Shown here one piece after another: positions 28,670-40,968 of a stretch of DNA of 64,000 nucleotides; position 1 is the stretch's first letter; each line of letters begins with the position of its first letter. The stretch is from Myxococcota bacterium (GTDB lineage Bacteria; Myxococcota_A; Polyangia; Nannocystales; Nannocystaceae). The notes below the pieces were generated by a model. That model had not been told where the DNA came from, searched no databases, and saw only the letters and a program-made list of their open reading frames with translations. The stretch is taken from contig JBCCHT010000011.1 of the NCBI GenBank assembly GCA_039028615.1, positions 199,916 to 263,915 on the forward strand, in the 5' to 3' direction. Position numbers and translations under genes: made by a program.

Positions 28670-30256
28670 GTGATCACCCGCCTGCCGTCCCGCGTCGCGC
28701 TCAGTCTCCTCCTGGCCACCGCCTACGGCTGCGACAAGAAGGACGAGAAGGACCCGTCGTCGGCGGCAGGCGAAGAGGCTTCGTCGAGCGAGTCGTCGTC
28801 CGGCAAGAAGTCCGGTCGCAAGGGCAAGCGCATGCCCTCCATCGAGATCTCCGAGCTCGTGCCCGCCGAGGCGGCCGGGGTCTTGGTGGTGCGCACCCCC
28901 GAGTCGATGTTCGCCGCCATCGCCAGCTTCGACATGCTGGGCGAAGCCGACACCGACGACATCGAGACCCTCCGCAAGGAGCTCGATGACTTCCTCGAGG
29001 CGCAGATCGGCCTGAAGCTCACCGACGTCGATGCCCTGACCGGGTTCTTCATCCCGGACAAGGGCGCGGCCGGAATCCTGGCGGGCACGAAGGGCAAGCC
29101 CAAAGGCAAGGCGGTGGGAGAACACGAGGGCGTCACGCTCATCGGCCTCGACGGCGACGATTTCGTCGCCGCAGCCCACGACGACGGCCTGCTGGTGGGG
29201 CAGCGCGAGGCGGTCGAGGCCGCGCTGTCGGCCGCGGAGGGCAAGGGCGAGACGCTCGAGAGCAAGGGCGGACCGCTCGTCGACCTCATCACCAAAGACT
29301 CGCGCGGCGTGAGCCTGGCCGTGGCCGTGGCCGTGTCCCGCATGCCCTCGGAACTCCGTCGCGAGGCCGAGCCCTTCGGGGTCGAGCACGCCAGCTTCCG
29401 CTACGGCGGCGACGGGATCGAGGTCGTGGCCACCGGCTCCGAGTCGTCCATGAAGACCCTCGCCACCCAGATCGAGGGCGGCATGGCCATGCTCACCAGC
29501 ATGGCGCAGTCGGAGAAGGACCGGGCCATGAAGCGCGAAGACACGCTCGAAGGGGTGGGCGCGATCGTGGCCGAGCACTCCGCTCGACGCCTGAGCAAGA
29601 TGCTGAAGCCCGAGGTCTCCGACGGCCAGCTGCGCATGGAGGTCCCCGTGCGGCTCCAAGACCCCGCCCTGCTGACCGCGTTCGCGGGCGTCGGGGCGGC
29701 CATCGCCATCCCGGCCATGGTCAAGTACACGCGGCGCGCCAAGACCTCGGAGGCCCGCGTTCAGATCGCCAAGATGTTCGACGCCGCCTCGGCCTACTTC
29801 AACGAGGAGCACGTCGATCGGGGCGCGACCGTGTTCCTCGGCGGGGGTGGCATGCCCGTCGACTCGGCCCCGCACAAGTGCCCGAACAACGGCTCCCTCA
29901 GCGGTTCAGCCGGGACCACTCCGCCGATCTCGGTCGACTGCAGCCAGGGCCCGGACGGTCGCTGCGTGCCCGTTGCCGGTCGCCCCAGCGAGCCCTGGGA
30001 GTACGACATCTCCTTGTGGACCGACAACGAAGTGTGGAACGGCCTCAACTTCATGCAGGAGATGGGGCACTCGTTCCACTACAACTTCGTCTACACGAAC
30101 ACCGACAGCGGGTACGGCAGCTGCCAGTTCACCGCGCAGGCCTTCGGCGATCTCGATGGCGACGGCGTGTTCTCGACCTACGAGCGCTCGGGCGCAGCCG
30201 ACGAGCACGGCGTGAACGCGGCCGCGGGCCTGTACATCGACAAAGAGGTCGAATAG
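28670..30256 (+). CDS. Lipoprotein with C-terminal type IV pilin-like domain
   Basis: Lipobox TAYGC; from ~29670 AAIAIPAMVKYTRRAKTSEARVQI (pilin alpha-1) and FTAQAFGDLDGDG (deltaproteobacterial PilA-like C-terminus). Confidence 0.8.
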   Translation: MITRLPSRVALSLLLATAYGCDKKDEKDPSSAAGEEASSSESSSGKKSGRKGKRMPSIEISELVPAEAAGVLVVRTPESMFAAIASFDMLGEADTDDIETLRKELDDFLEAQIGLKLTDVDALTGFFIPDKGAAGILAGTKGKPKGKAVGEHEGVTLIGLDGDDFVAAAHDDGLLVGQREAVEAALSAAEGKGETLESKGGPLVDLITKDSRGVSLAVAVAVSRMPSELRREAEPFGVEHASFRYGGDGIEVVATGSESSMKTLATQIEGGMAMLTSMAQSEKDRAMKREDTLEGVGAIVAEHSARRLSKMLKPEVSDGQLRMEVPVRLQDPALLTAFAGVGAAIAIPAMVKYTRRAKTSEARVQIAKMFDAASAYFNEEHVDRGATVFLGGGGMPVDSAPHKCPNNGSLSGSAGTTPPISVDCSQGPDGRCVPVAGRPSEPWEYDISLWTDNEVWNGLNFMQEMGHSFHYNFVYTNTDSGYGSCQFTAQAFGDLDGDGVFSTYERSGAADEHGVNAAAGLYIDKEVE

Positions 30257-32415: not shown

Positions 32416-34863
32416 TCAGCTTCCAAGCGCGACGAAGCCGTCGACACCTTCGGTGACGGTGATCGCGGAGTCGACCTTCACCCCTTCGACCCGCTGCACG
32501 GTGCCGCTCGTGGGCCAGGTGATCTCCAGCTCCTCGATCTCGCTGCCCCCGCCGAGTCCGATCTCCTGCTGCAGGCTATTGGCCCCGAAGCTCGCGCCGC
32601 TGCTCACCCAGGTGTAGACGTCCCGCGACTGGCCGCCGTCGAGCACTCGCACCCGCACCCGCGCCCCGATGGCCGCCCGGTTGGTGGTGTCGCCGACCAG
32701 GCGCACCGTGAGCCAGTGGTTGCCGTAGCCCGGGTTCTCGAACAGGGCGTTGTAGAAGGCGTCGGCCTTGTACCAGCCACCCATCTGAATGAAGACGTCC
32801 TGGTCTCCATCGCCATCGAGATCGCCGAAGGCCACGGCGTGGCCCTTCTGCAGGTGGCCCATGTTCACCGCGGAGGTCACGTTCTCGAAGCGCTTGCCGC
32901 CGTCGTTGCGATACATGACGTTGGGCACGAGGATCTCGAAGGGCGGCGACCCGGTGCCCAGGTAGATGTCGGGGAAGCCGTCGCTGTCGATGTCGCCGTA
33001 GTTCGCTCCCATGGGGAATCGAACGTCGAACAGCTCCATGTCCTTGGTCGCGTCGGTGAAGCCGCCGTTGCCATCGTTGATGTAGATCTGCAGGCGCTCC
33101 TGGTCCTCCATGTTGTCCGGGCCGGGAAAACCGAGGAAGTCTGCGGCCCAGACCTCGAGCTTGGCGGGCGGGTAGCCCCCCACGAAGAGGTCGAGGTTGC
33201 CGTCCTGGTTGGCGTCGAAGAACCAGCTGGTGAAGCTATGCACCCCCTGCCCGCGCTCGAGGTCCACCCCGAGATCGGGCGCGACGTCGACGAAGCTGCC
33301 GTTTCCTTCGTTGCGATACAGGTGGTTGGGCTGGTTCAGGTTCGAGACGTACAGGTCGAGGTCACCGTCGTTGTCGTAGTCGCCGAAGGTCGCCCCCTTG
33401 GTGTTGGGCGGACCGGGCAAGCCCCAGACGTTCTCGACGCCGGCCTCGTGGGCGACGTCGACGAAGGTGCCGTCGCCTTCATTGTGGAACAGCTGCGAGG
33501 GGTACCACTCGTTGCCGACGTAGAGGTCGACGAACCCGTCGTTGTCGTAGTCGCCCCAGGCGGCGGCTTGGGCCGGGTAGGCGCGGAGAGCCAGGCCGGC
33601 CTCGAAGCTCACGTCGGTGAAGTTGCCCTTGCCATCGTTTTGCAGCAACGAGTTGCGCTGCCGCCCGGGCGCATGCAGCTGCCACGCGCCACGCACGACA
33701 TAGATGTCGAGATCACCGTCGTTGTCGTAGTCGGCGTGCATGAGGTTGAAGCCGCCGAGCTGCTTGGAGATGCCCGACTGATCGGCCCAGTCGGCAAACG
33801 TGCCGTCCCCCTCGTTGCGATAAAAGTGCATGGTCGAGCACGAGTCGTAGCTCGACGAGACGATGTCGAGGCGGCCGTCGCCATCGAAGTCGTCCATGAT
33901 CGCGCCGCCGATCACGTTGAAGTCGTCCATGCCCTTCTCGCCCGCGAGCTCGGTGAAGCCCGCCATGTCGCGATCGGGCTTCAGGCGCTCGGGCGGCAGC
34001 ACGAAGCGCTCGTCGACGCCCTCGGGGTAGATCCCCACCGCCATGGCGGCCACGTTGAGCAGCCACCGCGCCCGCACGTCGTCGGGGTCGGCCTCGAGGA
34101 CCTCCATCAGCCACTTGATGGCGGTGCGCCCGGCCTCGGGATTGGCCCACACGCCCTCCTTCTGGATGGGGAAGAGGCAGCTGTCGGGGTTGTGCCCGTG
34201 CAGACAGTGGGTGACCTCGCCGCCCCGCAGCGCGGCCACGGCCAGCTCGGTGCGCAGGCCATTGACCTGCTCGAGCGGGTACTCGGCCTTCTGCGCTGCC
34301 CGCAGGGCGAGCAACAGCTGCTCCTGGGCGGGCGCGATGTCGTTGTGGCGCAGCAAGTGCGTCGACAGGGTGCGCCGGGTCTCGATGATCGCATCGACGT
34401 CGCCCTGCCCCTCGAGCTCGGCGACCTTGGCCGTCAGCTCGTCGATGCGCCCGCGACCGAGCATGGGGTCGGTGCTCTTGCCGATGGTCTCGCAGAACGA
34501 CTCGAGGCTGGCGACGTCCCGCTTGATGAGGTCGGCGCGCAGGGCCGTGGCGTAGCCGCCGATCCCGGCGAGCACCAAGGTCAGGCCCCACACCGCGGGC
34601 TCGATGCCTCGACCCCAGCGCCGTCGCGGCGCCCGAACGATGAGCACCATGGCGCCCAGCAGCAACGCCGCCTGCAGCCCTCGGACGGCGAGTAGCCGAC
34701 GGCTCCCGAAGTATTCGTAGGGGGTGAGCAGCTCGAACTGGGCGAGCGCTCGATGCCCCACGAGCATCGCGGTCACGACCCAAAAAGCCCCCAGCAACCG
34801 CCGTCGGGCGGCGCGGAGGGCCTCGAGGTTCGACTCGTTCGGTTCAGAGGGAGTTCTGCTCAT
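32416..34863 (-). CDS. CRTAC1-family FG-GAP/VCBS repeat protein with C-terminal ASPIC/UnbV domain; N-terminal TM helices
   Basis: Repeated DYDNDGDLDLYV motifs; GHLQKGHAVAFGDLDGDGDQD; NRAAIGARV...SFGANSL..EIGLG...ITWPTSG. Confidence 0.92.
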   Translation of the reverse strand: MSRTPSEPNESNLEALRAARRRLLGAFWVVTAMLVGHRALAQFELLTPYEYFGSRRLLAVRGLQAALLLGAMVLIVRAPRRRWGRGIEPAVWGLTLVLAGIGGYATALRADLIKRDVASLESFCETIGKSTDPMLGRGRIDELTAKVAELEGQGDVDAIIETRRTLSTHLLRHNDIAPAQEQLLLALRAAQKAEYPLEQVNGLRTELAVAALRGGEVTHCLHGHNPDSCLFPIQKEGVWANPEAGRTAIKWLMEVLEADPDDVRARWLLNVAAMAVGIYPEGVDERFVLPPERLKPDRDMAGFTELAGEKGMDDFNVIGGAIMDDFDGDGRLDIVSSSYDSCSTMHFYRNEGDGTFADWADQSGISKQLGGFNLMHADYDNDGDLDIYVVRGAWQLHAPGRQRNSLLQNDGKGNFTDVSFEAGLALRAYPAQAAAWGDYDNDGFVDLYVGNEWYPSQLFHNEGDGTFVDVAHEAGVENVWGLPGPPNTKGATFGDYDNDGDLDLYVSNLNQPNHLYRNEGNGSFVDVAPDLGVDLERGQGVHSFTSWFFDANQDGNLDLFVGGYPPAKLEVWAADFLGFPGPDNMEDQERLQIYINDGNGGFTDATKDMELFDVRFPMGANYGDIDSDGFPDIYLGTGSPPFEILVPNVMYRNDGGKRFENVTSAVNMGHLQKGHAVAFGDLDGDGDQDVFIQMGGWYKADAFYNALFENPGYGNHWLTVRLVGDTTNRAAIGARVRVRVLDGGQSRDVYTWVSSGASFGANSLQQEIGLGGGSEIEELEITWPTSGTVQRVEGVKVDSAITVTEGVDGFVALGS

Positions 34864-37800
34864 GCGACCCGTGGGGCAGGAGGGCCCGCAGGTCGGAGAC
34901 CGAGGGAGGTCCTGCCATCGCCAGTAGAACACGCCCTTGCGCGTCGGTCACGATGGTCGAGGGCAAGACGTCCTTGCGCACGAGTGCGTCGAGCACGGCC
35001 TTGGCCGCCGAGCGCTCGGTGACGCTCAGGTTCACCAGCAGGTCGTAGCCGGGATGGTGCTCGTCGATGTAGCTGCGGAGCATGTCCGGCGTGTCCTGGT
35101 CGTCCATGGGCAGGCCGAAGAGCGCGAGCTCGTCTTTGCCCAGGGCCTTCCGAAGCACCGACAGCTGCGGCATGTGCTTCTTACAAGACTCACACCACGT
35201 GGCCATGGTGGAGTAGAGCACCAGCTTCGCCTCGCCCGCGCGCTCGTGGGCGGCATCGACCACGAAGGAGCGCCCTTCTTCGGGCAGGGCCACCGGGTTG
35301 GCGGTGGCCAGCGTTGCCTCACGGTGCAGGTACGGGTGCAGCACCACGCCCGAGCCGTCGACGGTGTCCGCGGGGTTCTCGAACAGCTCGACCCGCTGCC
35401 CCACGGCCACATCGCGCACGGTGCTCGTCTTGCCCGAAGGCCAGGTGATCCGCATGGCCGACACGGTGGTCGCTTCGCCCACGCCGATCACCAGCGTGGA
35501 GGAGTTTTGGGAGGCGAACCCTTCGCCCAGTCGCTTCTCGCGGAGCAAGGTGGTGCCGCCGGGCAGGTCGAGCTGGATCCGAGTGCCGATGGCGTCGCGG
35601 TTGCTCCACTCGGTGCTGGCCTCGGTGCCCTTCAGGCCGCCGCGCAGGTCGACCGCGATCATGTTGCCGATGGTGGCGGGGTCGAAGACCTCGGATGCGC
35701 CGTTGCGGTAGAGCACGAAGCCGGGCTCGTTGGCGTTGACCATCGCGATGTCGTTGAGGCCGTCGTGGTCGAAGTCGATGCTCGACCACGCGCGGGAGTC
35801 GGAGGGAGAGTCGAGCCCCACCACACCCGCGATGTCGTCGAACTGCTTGCCGCCGAGGCTGAGGAAGAAGTGGTTTCGCTCGCCTCCGCTGAACGAAGCC
35901 GAGGCCGAGGACTTCCAGCCCTCCTCGCGCCAGCGCGACTTCCAGGGGTCCTTGTTCTGAATGCCGGAGTGAAGGTTGTCCGAGGAGCGCACGACCGTGC
36001 GCCAGAACTGGCTTCACAAATCTACGTCGACGGCGATCTCCTTGGGCGCGGTGTAGAAGCCCGAGAGCGCGTAGATGTCGAGGAACCCGTCGTTGTCGAA
36101 GTCGGTGAACTGCGAGCCCCAGCCCCAGCCCCCCTTCTCGACCATCATCTTGGGCGCCTCGAGGCCGGACACGTGGTCGAAGGCGCAGTCGCTGCCCATG
36201 TTGCGGAACAACGAGTTGCCGCTGGCCATCTTGACGAAGTTGCCATCGATGAGGTTGCCCAGGCCGCCCGCGATGCGGCGCCCGGCCTTGCTGTACATGT
36301 TGGTCACGTACAGGTCTTGGGCGCCGTCGTTGTCGTAGTCGCCCCAGCTCACGCCCATGCCGAAGCCGACGTCGGCGGTCTGGGTGAGCTCGGTGATGTC
36401 GGTGAACTTGCCGTCGCCGTCGTTGCGGAAGAAGTTGTTCGAGGCGAAGTCGTGCGCCAGGTACAGGTCCTGATCGCCGTCGTTGTCGTAGTCGGCCCAG
36501 CCCCCGTGGTAGGTGTGCCGCCAGACGCCGAGCTGCTCCTGCAGCGGCGATTCCTCGAAGGTCCCGCCCACGTTGGACAGAAACAGGTTGGGCGGACCCA
36601 CCTGGTCGATGAACTCGTGGGCGGTGAGCGAGCGCTTGTGCAGCTCTTTGGCGTCCTCGGGCGACAGATAGGGCGCCAGCAGGGTCTCGGCCGGCTCGAT
36701 GGGGATCTGCCCCGCCCGCTGCGAACGCATCATCTTGACCGCGTAGGTCGACAGGTAGACGTCGAGGCGGCCGTCGCCGTCGTAGTCGGCGGACGAGATG
36801 GAGGTGGTCAGGTTGGGCAGCTCGACCGCGACCTTGTCGCTGGCGTCGGTGAAGCGCCCGTCCACGTTCTCCATGTACATGGAGCGCTTGGCCGTGCGAC
36901 CGAGGAACAGGTCGGAGTCACCGTCGTTGTCGAAGTCGCCGAACAGGCCGCTCGAGACGAACGGAATCCCGGTCAGCCCATACTGCTCGGTGACGTCGGT
37001 GAAGGTCCCGTTGCCGCGATTGCGCAGCAGCTTCATGTCGCTGAAGTGCGGCATGACCAGGACGTCGTCGAAGCCGTCGTGGTCGATGTCGGTCACCGCC
37101 AAGCCGGGGTGGTGGTCCCACGCGATGAAGTGGAAGCCCCAGTAGGGCTCCTTCCACTCCGGGTCGGTGGCCATGCCCACGATGATGTCGTGCAGCTCGG
37201 AGTGACGCAGGGCCTGCCGGGTCTCGGGGTCCGGCACCGCCTGCGCCAGCACGTCCTGGAACATCTTGTTCTTGGCCTGGACGCCCTTGAGCTCCTTTTG
37301 TTTCCACTTGTAGATGCGCCAGGGACGACGGCCCTCTTCGTCCGGCTCGGCGCTGGTGTCCTCGCGCCAGAACAGCTCCTGCTTGCCCTTCATGGTCAGC
37401 CAGGTGCCGTCTTTGGCTCGCGCCAGCGCAGAGAAACCGGACAAGGCCTTCCACTCGGTGAGGTCCTCGTTGGTGAACTCGCCGCGAATGAAATAGATCT
37501 TCGCGTGCTCGAAGTAGTCGACCTTCTCGAAGAGCGGATCCCACGGAGACTCCGTGATCGCCCCCGTCGAGAAGTCGTCCTCGAGCGGCCATTCGAAGTG
37601 AACGGGCGCGACCTGGGACGTGGGCTCGGGCAGCTCGCCGCCCGAGGCGAGGCCGAGCACCTTCACCTTCGGCTCGAACAGGTCGGCGCTGCGATAGTCG
37701 CCGAGGGATAGGTTCGCCACTGCCTTGGACAGCTGCTTGAGCCGCGGCGTGTAGCGGAGGATGAGCTCTTCGGACTCGATGACCCCCTCCAGGGTCTCGG

Positions 37801-37942
37801 CGGCCGCCTGCTCTTCGGCAGGGACGGGCGGATGGCGATGCAGGTACAGCGCAGTACCGCCCGCCGCGATCGCACTGGCGGCGCCTATGAGGAGAGGGAA
37901 TCTATTTCGAGACTTGGAGCGTTCAGCATCAAGGATTGGCAT
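34844..37942 (-). CDS. Probable selenoprotein: FG-GAP/CRTAC1 repeats - Sec643 - ASPIC/UnbV - TlpA-like thioredoxin (CESC); ~1032 aa with UGA readthrough at 36016-36014
   Basis: ORFs 36014-37942 and 34844-35992 are in the same frame, joined by GAT TTG TGA AGC CAG TTC TGG CGC ACG GTC GTG (DL-U-SQFWRTVV). The FG-GAP repeat array continues after the TGA; a SECIS-like hairpin starts 11 nt downstream. Confidence 0.8.
35987..36002 (-). other. Bacterial SECIS-like stem-loop GCGCAC-GGUC-GUGCGC
   Basis: Perfect 6-bp stem with a GGUC loop; begins 11 nt after the in-frame UGA. Confidence 0.75.
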
Positions 37943-38088
37943 TGGGGACGGTGGGCTGGGGGCGCGATGAGACCAGGGTAGGGTCGACCGACCACGACAG
38001 CCTACATGCTTCTGGCGCTAGGGCATCAACCCGACCCGCAACGGAACCATGCCCGAATGACCGGTTGTTCGGGCCACCAACCGTTCAC

Positions 38089-39195
38089 TCAAAGATCAAT
38101 TGCCAAGAACGCAACGAGTTCCTCAGCGGGCCGGAAACCTTGGATCATGCGCAGTGGTGTACGGGCCCCAGGGTCGATCAACACGAACGCGGGCGTGGCC
38201 TGGAGATCGAGCCCTTCGAACAATGTCCACGTTGCATCGTCGGTAATGTCGCGCCGGGCAACGGTGAATTTTTGCATCGCGGCGTTCACTTTGGGACGTA
38301 AGAGTTCCGCCTCCTGTCGCTCGCAGGCCCCACAACCTTTCGCCGTCAGGTGTAATAGCAGCGGCACGTTCCGCGCGTTCGCGTCGCGAAGCGCGGAGTC
38401 GATCGGCGCCCAATTAATTTCGACGCGCGACGGTTCTTGCGGATCGCGCCCCGTCAACCGAGCCAGCTCGCGTTCCACGCCTGCCTCGTTCGCCCATTTC
38501 AACTTCGCGGCGACATTGCACGACCCGTCGATCACGAAGGCCGCATTCGGCCAACCCTTGTAGGCATTCGCGGTCGCGTCATCGGGCGTGTCGAGCAACA
38601 CGGGAATCGTGCCCGGCACCTCGTCGCGCAGCCGACGAGCCAGCGCGCGCCGCTGTTGCAAGGTGGTCGGTGTCGCCACCTCGTCGAACTCGTCGATGCG
38701 CCGGATCGACACCGCCTCGTGCGACGCGACCTCGCCGTCTCCGTTGACGTCACACGAACCAAAGAACGAAGGCGAGCCCCCGTACTCCGCCTGCGTGACG
38801 ATCCCGTTGCCGTCCTTGTCGGACGCCAGCAAGCGATCGAGCTCCGCGTTGAGCTCGTCGCCGCCTTGTCCTTTTGCATGCGCTTCCTTCGAGAACACGA
38901 AGGCGAAGCGGGCGTCGTCACCCCATCGATCGGCTTGGGCCTCGAACCGAGGCACCTTCATCCGAAAGGGGGGTCAACTATAGGAGCCGAAGATCAGCAC
39001 CGTCGGCGCCGCGCCGCACAGGTCCTTCAGCTGGACCTGCGAGCCCCCCAACGCGTCCAGCGAGAAGGCGGGCGCCGCGTCGCCGACCTTGGGATCGAGC
39101 TGGTCGAAGGGCACGGGCGGCGGGCGCTGGTCGCTGCGACAGCCGAGCGAGACGAGCGAGAGCAAGGGCCACGACACCAACGACGACCAGCGCAT
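38089..39195 (-). CDS. Probable selenoprotein: iodothyronine-deiodinase-like lipoprotein (Sec74) with EF-hand insertion and C-terminal thioredoxin (CGAC); 368 aa with UGA readthrough at 38976-38974
   Basis: TTC GGC TCC TAT AGT TGA CCC CCC TTT CGG = FGSYS-U-PPFR, matching the deiodinase FGSxxUPPF site; KVGDAAPAFSL before it, FVFSKEAH after it; DKDGNGIVTQAE and DVNGDGEVASHE EF-hands; lipobox VSLGC. Confidence 0.9.
38937..38956 (-). other. Bacterial SECIS-like stem-loop GG-U-GCCUC-GGUUC-GAGGC-CC
   Basis: GC-rich stem with a 5' bulged U; loop begins GGU about 25 nt after the in-frame UGA. Confidence 0.7.
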
Positions 39196-39258
39196 CGCCG
39201 TCCAGGGTAGCAGCGATTGCAGGGTGCCCGGCGGCGATCGATGGGCGATGATGGGCGG

Positions 39259-40968
39259 GTGAGCAGCCGACGTCAGTTCTTGACCGCGCTTGCGGCCTCC
39301 GCCGCGGCCTGCCGCGTGACGCCGACCGGACAGCCGGGCACGGCCGCGACCGCCTCGACCGACCTCGACAGCCTCGCCGCCGCCGAGAAGGTCCTCGGCA
39401 TCGAGCACACGCCCGCCGAACGGGAACAGATCGCCGCCACCCTCGACGAGCAGCTCGGTCTCGTCGCCTCTCGCCGCGGACATCCGCTCCCCAACGAACT
39501 CGCGCCTGCCACCGTCTTCGACCCGCGGCTACCTGGCACGGCCGTGCCGACCAGCACCACGCGGGCCTTTCCCGAGGTCGGCGAAGCCCTGCCCGCCGAC
39601 GACGAGTCGATCGCCTTTGCGAGCGTCGCCTCGCTGTCGAAGTGGATCGCGACCAAGCAGATCACCAGCCGACGGCTCACCGAGCTCTACTTGGAGCGAC
39701 TCGAGCGGATCGGGCCGAGCTTGGAGTGCGTGATCACGCTGACCCGGGAGCTGGCGCTGCAGCAGGCCGACCGCGCCGACAAAGAGATCGCCGCCGGCAA
39801 GCTCCGCGGGCCGCTGCACGGCATCCCCTGGGGCGCCAAAGACCTGTTCGATACCAAGGGCATCAAGACCACCTGGGGCGCCAAGCCCTACGAAGACCGC
39901 GTCGGACCGAGCGATGCCACCGTCGTGCAGCGCCTCGAAGCGGCCGGGGCCGTGTTGGTCGCCAAGCTCTCGCTCGGGGCCTTGGCCTATGGTGACCTGT
40001 GGTTCGGCGGGCGGACCCGCAACCCGTGGAATCCGGTCGAGGGTTCGAGTGGCTCGAGCGCAGGCTCGGCTTCGGCCGTCGCAGCCGGGCTCGTGGGGTT
40101 TGCGTTGGGCACCGAGACTCTGGGGTCGATTGTCTCGCCGTCCATGCGATGCGGCGTCACGGGCTTGCGACCCACCTTTGGTCGTGTGCCGCGGACCGGG
40201 GCGATGGCGTTGTGCTGGTCGATGGACAAGGTCGGACCCATCACCCGTCGAGTCGAGGATGCCGCGATGGTCCTGGCTGCCATCGATGGAGCCGACCCCG
40301 GCGATGCCTCCAGTCGCGATGTTCCCTTGGCGCTCGATCTGAAGCGCCCACTCGAGGGTTTGAAGGTCGGCATCATCCCGGGATGGTTTGCCGACCCGGA
40401 GCTGAGCGAGCCCGAGAAGGCGCTGCCCGCCGTCGTCAAAGAGCTGGGCATGGAGCTGGTCGAGCTACCCTCGCTTCCCGACCTGCCCTACGCCGCCATG
40501 CTCACCGTGCTGTACACCGAGGCCGCCGCCGCCTTCGAGACGCTGATGCTCGACGGTAGTGACGACCAGCTCGTCTGGCAGGACCTCAACGCCTGGCCCA
40601 ACAGCTTTCGGCGCACGCGGCTGCTCGGCGCGATCGAGTTCGTGCAAGGGCAACGGATCCGTCGCGAAGTCATGGGGGCGCTGGCCGAGCGCTTTGCCCA
40701 AGTCGACGTCATGGTCGGGCCCAGCTACGCGGGCGGCATGCTGACGATCACCAACATGACCGGGCACCCCTGTCTCACGATTCCCGCCGGGTTCGTCGAG
40801 CGACCGCCGATCGACTCGTTGAGCAATGCACCGATGGACGGGGACGCGCGATCGATGCCGCAGGGGATCACGGTGTGGGGGCGGCTGTACGACGAAGGCA
40901 CGCTGTGCCGGGTGGGCTTGGCGTTGCAAGAGCACTACGGCGTGGCACCCAAACGCCCACCCATGTGA
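39259..40968 (+). CDS. Amidase-signature family enzyme, Tat-type signal/lipoprotein
   Basis: SSRRQFL..AAAC; GPLHGIPWGAKD, GSSGSSAGS, GTETLGSIVSPS. Confidence 0.93.
   Translation: MSSRRQFLTALAASAAACRVTPTGQPGTAATASTDLDSLAAAEKVLGIEHTPAEREQIAATLDEQLGLVASRRGHPLPNELAPATVFDPRLPGTAVPTSTTRAFPEVGEALPADDESIAFASVASLSKWIATKQITSRRLTELYLERLERIGPSLECVITLTRELALQQADRADKEIAAGKLRGPLHGIPWGAKDLFDTKGIKTTWGAKPYEDRVGPSDATVVQRLEAAGAVLVAKLSLGALAYGDLWFGGRTRNPWNPVEGSSGSSAGSASAVAAGLVGFALGTETLGSIVSPSMRCGVTGLRPTFGRVPRTGAMALCWSMDKVGPITRRVEDAAMVLAAIDGADPGDASSRDVPLALDLKRPLEGLKVGIIPGWFADPELSEPEKALPAVVKELGMELVELPSLPDLPYAAMLTVLYTEAAAAFETLMLDGSDDQLVWQDLNAWPNSFRRTRLLGAIEFVQGQRIRREVMGALAERFAQVDVMVGPSYAGGMLTITNMTGHPCLTIPAGFVERPPIDSLSNAPMDGDARSMPQGITVWGRLYDEGTLCRVGLALQEHYGVAPKRPPM

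Follow-up and report, generated by a model that had tools for sequence, protein, structure and literature searches.

Bacterial deiodinase-like selenoproteins (PF00837) were described by Zhang, Fomenko and Gladyshev in 2005 (PMC1088965) and also appear in two reviews (PMC13188914 and PMC9312934), in whose accessible text the term 'EF-hand' occurs zero times. As far as the available part of the 2005 paper goes, its proteins share with the gene family analysed here the fold, the Sec/Cys position and a bacterial SECIS inside the gene, but our family differs in a loop about 50 residues longer that carries an EF-hand pair, in a fused CxxC domain, and in KxxWA instead of GxGP. Xu et al. (2021; PMC9402790, Fig. 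2B) presented a deiodinase-like selenoprotein with an EF-hand pair (Pfam13499), and the text and legend, by which we compared it, give neither the EF position nor a thioredoxin domain. Because this fusion is already in print, the novelty implied by a preliminary description of the present locus was overrated: both the components and their association with EF-hands have been published, and, judged against that text and legend, it is the arrangement of known parts that is new. Searches of the open-access literature showed neither an EF-hand placed within the deiodinase loop nor an activity assay of any bacterial deiodinase-like member.

The deiodinases Dio1–3 (PDB 4tr3, 9h48) have in common with our family the peroxiredoxin-like thioredoxin fold, SxTU-PPF, E-A-H and the conserved Arg of helix D. 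Unlike them, the family lacks Trp207, His219, the Arg275 turn, Cys168 and Cys239, and has a predicted lipid anchor in place of the transmembrane helix, a SECIS-type element inside the gene and a fused, putatively reducing domain. The last domain is best matched by DsbD gamma (2fwe, 1uc7), with the motif PGCxAC here and not WCxxC, and the insertion by compact bacterial EF pairs including lanmodulin (8fns, 6mi5), with loops here that have no Pro2 or Asp9; unlike in these systems, both modules are found here within one redox protein. With scores of about 495, P0122 and P0061 are examples of true members of NCBIfam NF038285; their EF-hands are N-terminal, and they possess the GxGP turn. NF038285 (deiodinase_rel, 'deiodinase family protein') was the best NCBIfam match of our gene, at 104 bits, far under the cut-off of 250, and a Cys relative (P0008) reached 119 bits.

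Gene layout and the internal TGA codon

The window, i.e., the whole stretch of 64,000 nucleotides analysed here, contains one such gene, which is single-copy in a 12.3-Mb genome of 68% GC. Its features are as follows.

38089..39195, minus strand: entire gene of 368 codons followed by a TGA stop, in one frame
39139..39195, minus strand: predicted lipoprotein signal peptide with Cys19 (SLGC) at its end, at motif level
38875..39090, minus strand: deiodinase-like core, first half (residues 36-107), with S71, S73, U74-P-P-F and E104-A-H106, from PF00837 and the 4tr3 alignment
38974..38976, minus strand: in-frame TGA, codon 74, predicted selenocysteine, from TGA/Cys codon alternation in 22 distinct loci
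38939..38953, minus strand: SECIS-type hairpin GCCUCG-GUU-CGAGGC, loop 26 nt past the UGA, from pairing in 14 TGA genes
38671..38874, minus strand: insertion (residues 108-175) replacing the deiodinase omega-loop and containing the EF-hand pair, from spacing versus Dio3 and a profile gap
38785..38820, minus strand: EF-hand loop 1 (D126-E137), from ligand-position conservation
38716..38751, minus strand: EF-hand loop 2 (D149-E160), from ligand-position conservation
38446..38670, minus strand: deiodinase-like core, second half (residues 176-250), with a KxxWA end instead of the GxGP turn, from alignments and profile comparison
38098..38415, minus strand: thioredoxin-like domain with CxxC C288/C291 (38334-38323) and cis-Pro-type T334-P335; DsbD gamma the nearest solved relatives

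All of the motifs listed in the preliminary description were recovered where it had placed them, in one minus-strand frame: FGSYS-TGA(38976-38974)-PPFR, FVFSKEAH, the two EF loops, PTTLQQRR..AYKGWPNAAFVID and CGAC at 288-291. The deiodinase-like fold that it proposed was borne out by an HMM scan of the readthrough product, in which the match of Pfam T4_deiodinase (PF00837) extended over the TGA, from residue 36 to residue 107, with 42 bits (cut-off 27), while neither half of the gene scored by itself; 35/41 family members matched the same model at E<=0.01. Thioredoxin-like models matched residues 265-364, with Thioredoxin_7 at 26.9-27.5 bits against a cut-off of 27. A lipobox-like Cys after a hydrophobic stretch was found in 23 of the 27 members with an N-terminus (P0015 was left out as a false match), which agrees at the motif level with the lipoprotein signal suggested before. 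The lipobox-like SLGC of the window gene deviates from the textbook form. The protein is predicted to be an exported, membrane-anchored lipoprotein.

To compare the codon at position 74 between loci, a DNA motif pattern with this codon left free was used, and 9 genome and 21 metagenome loci were obtained. Family members were 9/9 of the genome matches and 14/21 of the metagenome matches; the remaining seven of the 21 (L060, L061, L063, L064, L069, L072 and L073) were chance matches and were dropped. Removal of the duplicates L058 and L075 and addition of the window gene gave 22 distinct loci, one of which, L074, diverges from the family beyond the second EF loop. The pattern was built from the family consensus, so that divergent members, e.g., three with Ser, were missed by it. 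The codon was TGA in 14 loci and TGC or TGT in 8, with no other codon. A SECIS-type stem of 6 bp with a G in its small apical loop was intact in 14/14 TGA genes and 0/8 Cys genes. In all 14 TGA genes, Pro-Arg-Phe-Glu is written CCT CGG TTC GAG G, which forms the GUU-loop hairpin, and CCT is a rare codon in eight neighbouring genes (8/241 Pro codons). The paired cells of the hairpin amounted to 99% in the TGA genes versus 62.5% in the Cys genes, and in two TGA genes, including that of the window, one pair was changed on both sides. A tree made from the columns after the hairpin stretch gave three independent Sec/Cys switches, and the hairpin state followed in 3/3, an agreement with p 0.25, i.e., too few pairs for significance. 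The folding energy of the window hairpin alone was not significant (z -1.64), and a genome-wide scan for TGA plus hairpin was unspecific, since 210/922 candidates passed and the window gene was absent among the matches listed. The SECIS claim is therefore based on the comparative test across genes and not on folding energy.

The genome has SelA, SelB, SelD and tRNA-Sec, all above their cut-offs. From this machinery, the alternation of TGA with Cys codons and the restriction of the hairpin to TGA genes, it is very likely that the internal UGA is read as selenocysteine, as had been proposed. The public gene calls divide the window gene, and the databases hold it as two pieces split at codon 74 (P0003 and P0004 begin at M79, and P0025 stops at S73), as would be the case if the TGA were a real stop and the locus either a pseudogene or a pair of genes for small proteins. 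The chance of this is next to nil, because TGA stands at this codon in 14 distinct loci, whose identity goes down to about 40%, Cys codons are its sole alternative, the hairpin is tied to it and the genome has the full Sec machinery.

Some side observations concern the same decoding. The Cys member L057 (988-1041) has kept SECIS-type codons (ACT CCT .. TTC GA. GAG) with two mismatches, and its Cys codon looks as if it had recently been converted from Sec. In relatives, the loci L005, L009, L037-L040 and L042-L046 are deiodinase-like genes with an in-frame TGA and without the whole architecture. Among the matches listed for the window's own genome, in-frame TGAs in CxxU/UxxC motifs were found at C1:338912, C2:229521, C5:96454, C6:131401, C33:133832, C42:70173, C50:49269 and C68:22945, in genes that we take to resemble known AhpD-, peroxiredoxin-, TlpA- and DsbA-like selenoproteins. 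The genome seems to encode a large selenoproteome.

The EF-hand insertion and the family

Among 1.84 billion representatives searched, 20 proteins reached E<=1e-30, and the majority of these had the full architecture or started at Met79. This small clade combines a predicted lipoprotein signal, a deiodinase-like core, an EF-hand pair in place of the omega-loop and a DsbD-gamma-like CxxC domain; conservation was counted in a 41-member alignment, in which 14/41 members are natural Cys versions. The nine records that have titles belong, wherever the tree gives an origin, to Myxococcota (Nannocystaceae, Kofleriaceae and unassigned). The gene is patchy: whole-length matches were obtained in 2/61 related genomes and, with a stricter first pass than for these 61, in 1/401 phylum genomes. 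An orthologue 44% identical to the window gene, which likewise has TGA as this codon, is present in one genome of the same family (G032). In a tree of the core only, from which the insertion was cut out, the family formed one side of a branch (16/16 rows, SH-aLRT 100), beside bacterial homologues ending in a Trp motif and apart from those with the GxGP turn. Both this tree and the 41-row family tree are quick trees, the core tree with the mixture option off and with family rows from one alignment and other rows cut by motif.

The EF-hand pair is located between His106 and Pro176, inside the deiodinase insertion loop as had been noticed before, and the columns between these residues hold 68-74 residues in 39/40 members versus 16 in Dio3. 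The alignment of the family with Dio3 (4tr3) consists of two pieces, the first up to EAHPS and the second from Gln218-His219, and the profile comparison with ordinary bacterial homologues showed a 50-residue gap at the insertion loop and a turn four residues shorter. Positions 1, 3, 5 and 12 of loop 1 are D, D/N, D/N and E in 40/40 members having the loop; positions 1, 3 and 5 of loop 2 are D, D/N and D in 41/41, and position 12 is E in 40 and D in one. The EF-hand_1 model was weak in the window copy, below the Pfam cut-off (E 0.094), and matched 29/41 members at E<=0.01. The HMM check suggested for the EF-hands thus gave a weak match for the window copy by itself, while the matches across the family and the conserved ligand positions speak for them. 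The pair is predicted to bind calcium.

To see where EF-hands occur in other homologues, 150 top hits were sorted, of which 42 were unparsed, 8 were family members and 100 were others with the core found by motifs. Of these 100, 13 had EF loops at the N-terminus and 2 at the C-terminus, and none had them within the insertion loop. Because any EF-hands recognised in the other homologues examined are terminal, the insertion is, as judged from these alignments, peculiar to the clade of the window gene, whereas EF modules as such are a frequent addition, and the one here resembles compact bacterial EF repeats (P0057, E 3e-11). Three proteins of a separate clade (P0028, P0029 and P0053) have the order EF pair, deiodinase-like core and similar CxxC domain, and this different order of the three modules suggests a convergent assembly.

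The position of the pair raises the question whether it works as a true switch, as the preliminary description had suggested for calcium, in which calcium or lanthanide would open or close the access to Sec74 and make the protein a metal-gated selenoenzyme. The corresponding loop gates the pocket of Dio3, according to the portion of PMC7506546 available, and the ligand positions are nearly invariant. Lanmodulin is among the best EF-hand matches of the insertion, and the two loops are 11-13 residues apart in 38/40 members versus the 24-25 given for calmodulin in the accessible text of PMC10949232. In two members, P0022 and P0298, the catalytic Cys/Sec has disappeared together with EF loop 1. 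On the other hand, of the lanmodulin hallmarks named in the text on loop spacing (Pro2 and Asp9 of the loop), neither occurred in any of the 81 family loops, and a lanthanide specificity was rejected because of these missing residues. The terminal EF modules in the other top hits suggest a general calcium-binding add-on. Furthermore, an exported protein is exposed to the calcium of the medium, which usually fills such EF sites. Because calcium sites outside the cytoplasm are likely always filled, we consider the switch rather unlikely, and by default the EF pair is likely to be a structural lid over the active site.

The neighbouring FG-GAP gene

Downstream of the deiodinase-like gene, at a distance of 147 bp, the window has a second gene with an internal TGA.

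34844..37942, minus strand: gene with FG-GAP repeats, ASPIC/UnbV and a TlpA-like CxxC domain, 1032 codons, two same-frame ORFs joined by a single TGA

The in-frame TGA is at 36016-36014, and a GGUC-loop hairpin follows at 36003-35986, 17 nt on, with a folding energy that is not significant (z -1.10). Among the homologues listed (120 of the 471 found), 84 end exactly at the TGA codon and 2 end one residue later; of the full-length homologues listed, one has Cys at the TGA position, and the others have Glu, Asn or Ser. From these data the FG-GAP gene is a probable second selenoprotein gene. Candidates for ASPIC/FG-GAP selenoproteins are found in a supplementary table of Kim et al. (2016; PMC4807772), of which a part was available, and such candidates are not named in the main text of a 2026 review.

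Both genes are linked on a contig of another study, which covers 37516-39339 and differs at 240 positions, and three pairs of homologues share longest contigs of equal size (62585, 8365 and 12053), from which linkage can be presumed. The FG-GAP gene was absent at 11/11 other family loci with at least 2 kb of downstream sequence. The linkage of the two genes is limited to the window's own lineage. A third co-oriented FG-GAP/ASPIC-UnbV gene of 838 aa (32416-34932, minus strand) overlaps the end of the second and has no in-frame TGA; the three genes may be one transcription unit. A promoter scan found none; the three terminator-like hits all fell within the gene, with none in the stretch that separates it from the FG-GAP gene, a result that says little for this organism. 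An operon conserved throughout the family was tried and rejected: among 155 heuristic ORFs at 24 loci, neighbours were shared only between duplicates or sister loci. Elsewhere in the window, at 28670-30256 (plus strand), there is a protein of 528 aa that has no Pfam match and has a hydrophobic segment in mid-protein rather than at the N-terminus, a segment that we take to resemble pilin.

Active site, CxxC domain and proposed function

The residues of the core were compared with those of Dio3 (4tr3), in which the equivalents are S71=Ser167, S73=Thr169, U74=Sec170, E104=Glu200, H106=His202 and R182=Arg225. S71 is kept in 29/29 members, S or T at position 73 in 29/29, E104 in 40/40, H106 in 39/40 and R182 in 41/41. 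In contrast, Cys168 is replaced by Tyr72 (F/Y/S in 29/29 members), Cys239 by Thr196 (Cys in 0/41), His219 by Pro176 (Pro in 39/41), the omega-loop with Trp207 by the EF insertion, and the Arg275-Gly-Pro turn (Arg/Lys in Dio1–3) by KxxWA, which is four residues shorter. Besides the CxxC, Cys is conserved only at Cys19 and position 74, and the core has no other conserved Cys. The Arg/Lys275-Gly-Pro turn of Dio1–3 holds the amino-acid end of the hormone. According to the accessible text of Bayse et al. (PMC7506546), Glu200, Ser167 and Thr169 serve anchoring and proton relay, and the omega-loop, Trp207, Asp211, His219 and Arg275 shape the thyroxine pocket. The family thus retains the residues of deiodinase chemistry in its alignment and has dropped the hormone pocket, and the protein of the window is likely not a true deiodinase. 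The deiodinase activity considered in the preliminary description is made less likely by the lost pocket, although the proton-relay residues are kept. By these residue tests the family falls outside Dio1–3, yet it may work like them.

Ser occupies the catalytic position in three members (P0018, P0022 and P0298), in which the CxxC is kept. Ser or Thr at the Sec/Cys position was also seen in 25/106 parsed other hits (top hits P0028-P0156), and many bacterial deiodinase-like proteins may be redox-dead.

In the last domain, C288, C291 and P335 are present in 39/39 members reaching these positions, and its best solved relatives are DsbD gamma (PDB 2fwe, E 3e-11). The fused CxxC domain claimed earlier is therefore well founded, and the idea that it is a built-in reductant has gained support because the core is without both resolving cysteines of Dio3. 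The AT-rich dip described for the 3' part was also confirmed: GC3 is 75/111 (0.68) in the last domain versus 217/257 (0.84) in the rest (Fisher p 4e-4), a drop as large as in 0.55% of 3076 similar-sized heuristic ORFs of the genome. The recent fusion or acquisition that had been derived from it was rejected, because the domain is family-wide and the GC3 gap averages zero in 19 relatives (mean 0.001, sd 0.044); hence the dip does not date the fusion. The last domain of the window gene is nearest to its own clade (85, 50 and 43% identity versus 26-43% elsewhere), and the dip may stem from a local exchange with a homologue of lower GC or from less strict codon choice.

From these features, we propose a self-recycling cell-envelope oxidoreductase, i.e., a predicted lipid-anchored selenoprotein in which Sec74 would be re-reduced by the fused CxxC with the EF pair as a lid, and we give this reading a probability of about 0.5. 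The lipoprotein would be exported to the cell envelope, where Sec74, helped by S71, S73, E104 and H106, would attack an oxidant (peroxide and oxidised sulfur are candidates). The oxidised selenium would be passed to Cys288 and then to Cys291 of the fused domain, which would clear it because the core is without a resolving cysteine. A DsbD-like membrane protein of the genome could recharge the CxxC, and the calcium-loaded EF-hands in place of the flexible omega-loop would set which substrates reach Sec74. The only DsbD-type match in the genome (L078:892-2211, on C13) has the membrane and gamma (WCLPC) domains and is without alpha. The reductants named for Dio1 and Dio3 are Trx, Grx or GSH in the available part of PMC11592359. 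The loss of the hormone-pocket features and the resolving cysteines makes a general exported oxidoreductase likelier than a deiodinase, and the joining of core, EF pair and similar CxxC domain in the unrelated branch P0028/P0029/P0053 also favours it. The variation of neighbours between loci fits a general-purpose enzyme, whereas the patchiness (2/61 related genomes) is as compatible with a niche substrate as with a general role. In the part of their paper available, Zhang et al. (2005; PMC1088965) likewise expected a redox role other than deiodination.

A relay from selenium to CxxC need not be obligatory. The retention of the CxxC in the three Ser members indicates that it can be maintained in the absence of Sec/Cys74 and that it may have a different partner, and the two redox centres might then act apart, the CxxC as a DsbD-gamma-like shuttle for other exported proteins, with Sec74 reduced otherwise. 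The absence of an alpha domain from the DsbD-like protein fits this division of labour, and the FG-GAP protein might be the shuttle partner in the window's lineage. The latter, however, has its own CxxC domain and is missing at the other loci with sufficient downstream sequence, and the fusion is kept in all 39 full members around a core without any other conserved thiol, so that separate centres appear decidedly improbable.

To our knowledge, the only characterised members of the deiodinase fold are dehalogenases, and this counts against the oxidoreductase reading. A reductive dehalogenase for non-thyronine halogenated aromatics (e.g., bromo- or iodophenols), with a new substrate pocket built by the EF insertion, would agree with the nearest solved structures, Dio3 and Dio2, and with the retained equivalents of Sec, S167, T169, E200 and H202. 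One locus (L057) adjoins two FAD-dependent genes, one of which matches Trp_halogenase (E 4.6e-8), but such a halogenase-like neighbour was seen at 1/21 loci scanned, where 50/155 predicted ORFs were given to Pfam. With the ordinary bacterial homologues, the match to Dio3 runs over the full length at 125 bits and includes DGW and the GP turn, whereas the family of the window matches Dio3 in two pieces at 65 bits, with Trp207, His219 and the Arg275-Gly-Pro turn replaced. The named members come from several lineages and, judging by titles, from no single halogen-rich niche. We regard such a dehalogenase as unlikely. A combination of both ideas, a metal-gated, self-recycling selenoenzyme in which calcium or lanthanide would switch a dehalogenase or reductase and the DsbD-gamma-like domain would recycle selenium, appears quite improbable; if the metal gate were true, the protein would provide the first case of ion regulation in an enzyme of the deiodinase fold, as well as a soluble model, on a single chain, of deiodinase re-reduction.

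Whether oxidoreductase, as we prefer, or not, the clade bears on two questions, i.e., what the bacterial fold does and how selenium is re-reduced in the deiodinase fold without resolving cysteines. How Dio2 is re-reduced without them is still an open question, according to the available part of PMC11592359. The clade offers an easy entry to both, with natural Cys versions, no transmembrane helix and a likely reductant on the same chain. In addition, it is a clean natural case in which the SECIS decays whenever Sec turns to Cys, and it indicates that the substrate loop of the deiodinase fold accepts an entire predicted calcium-binding module.
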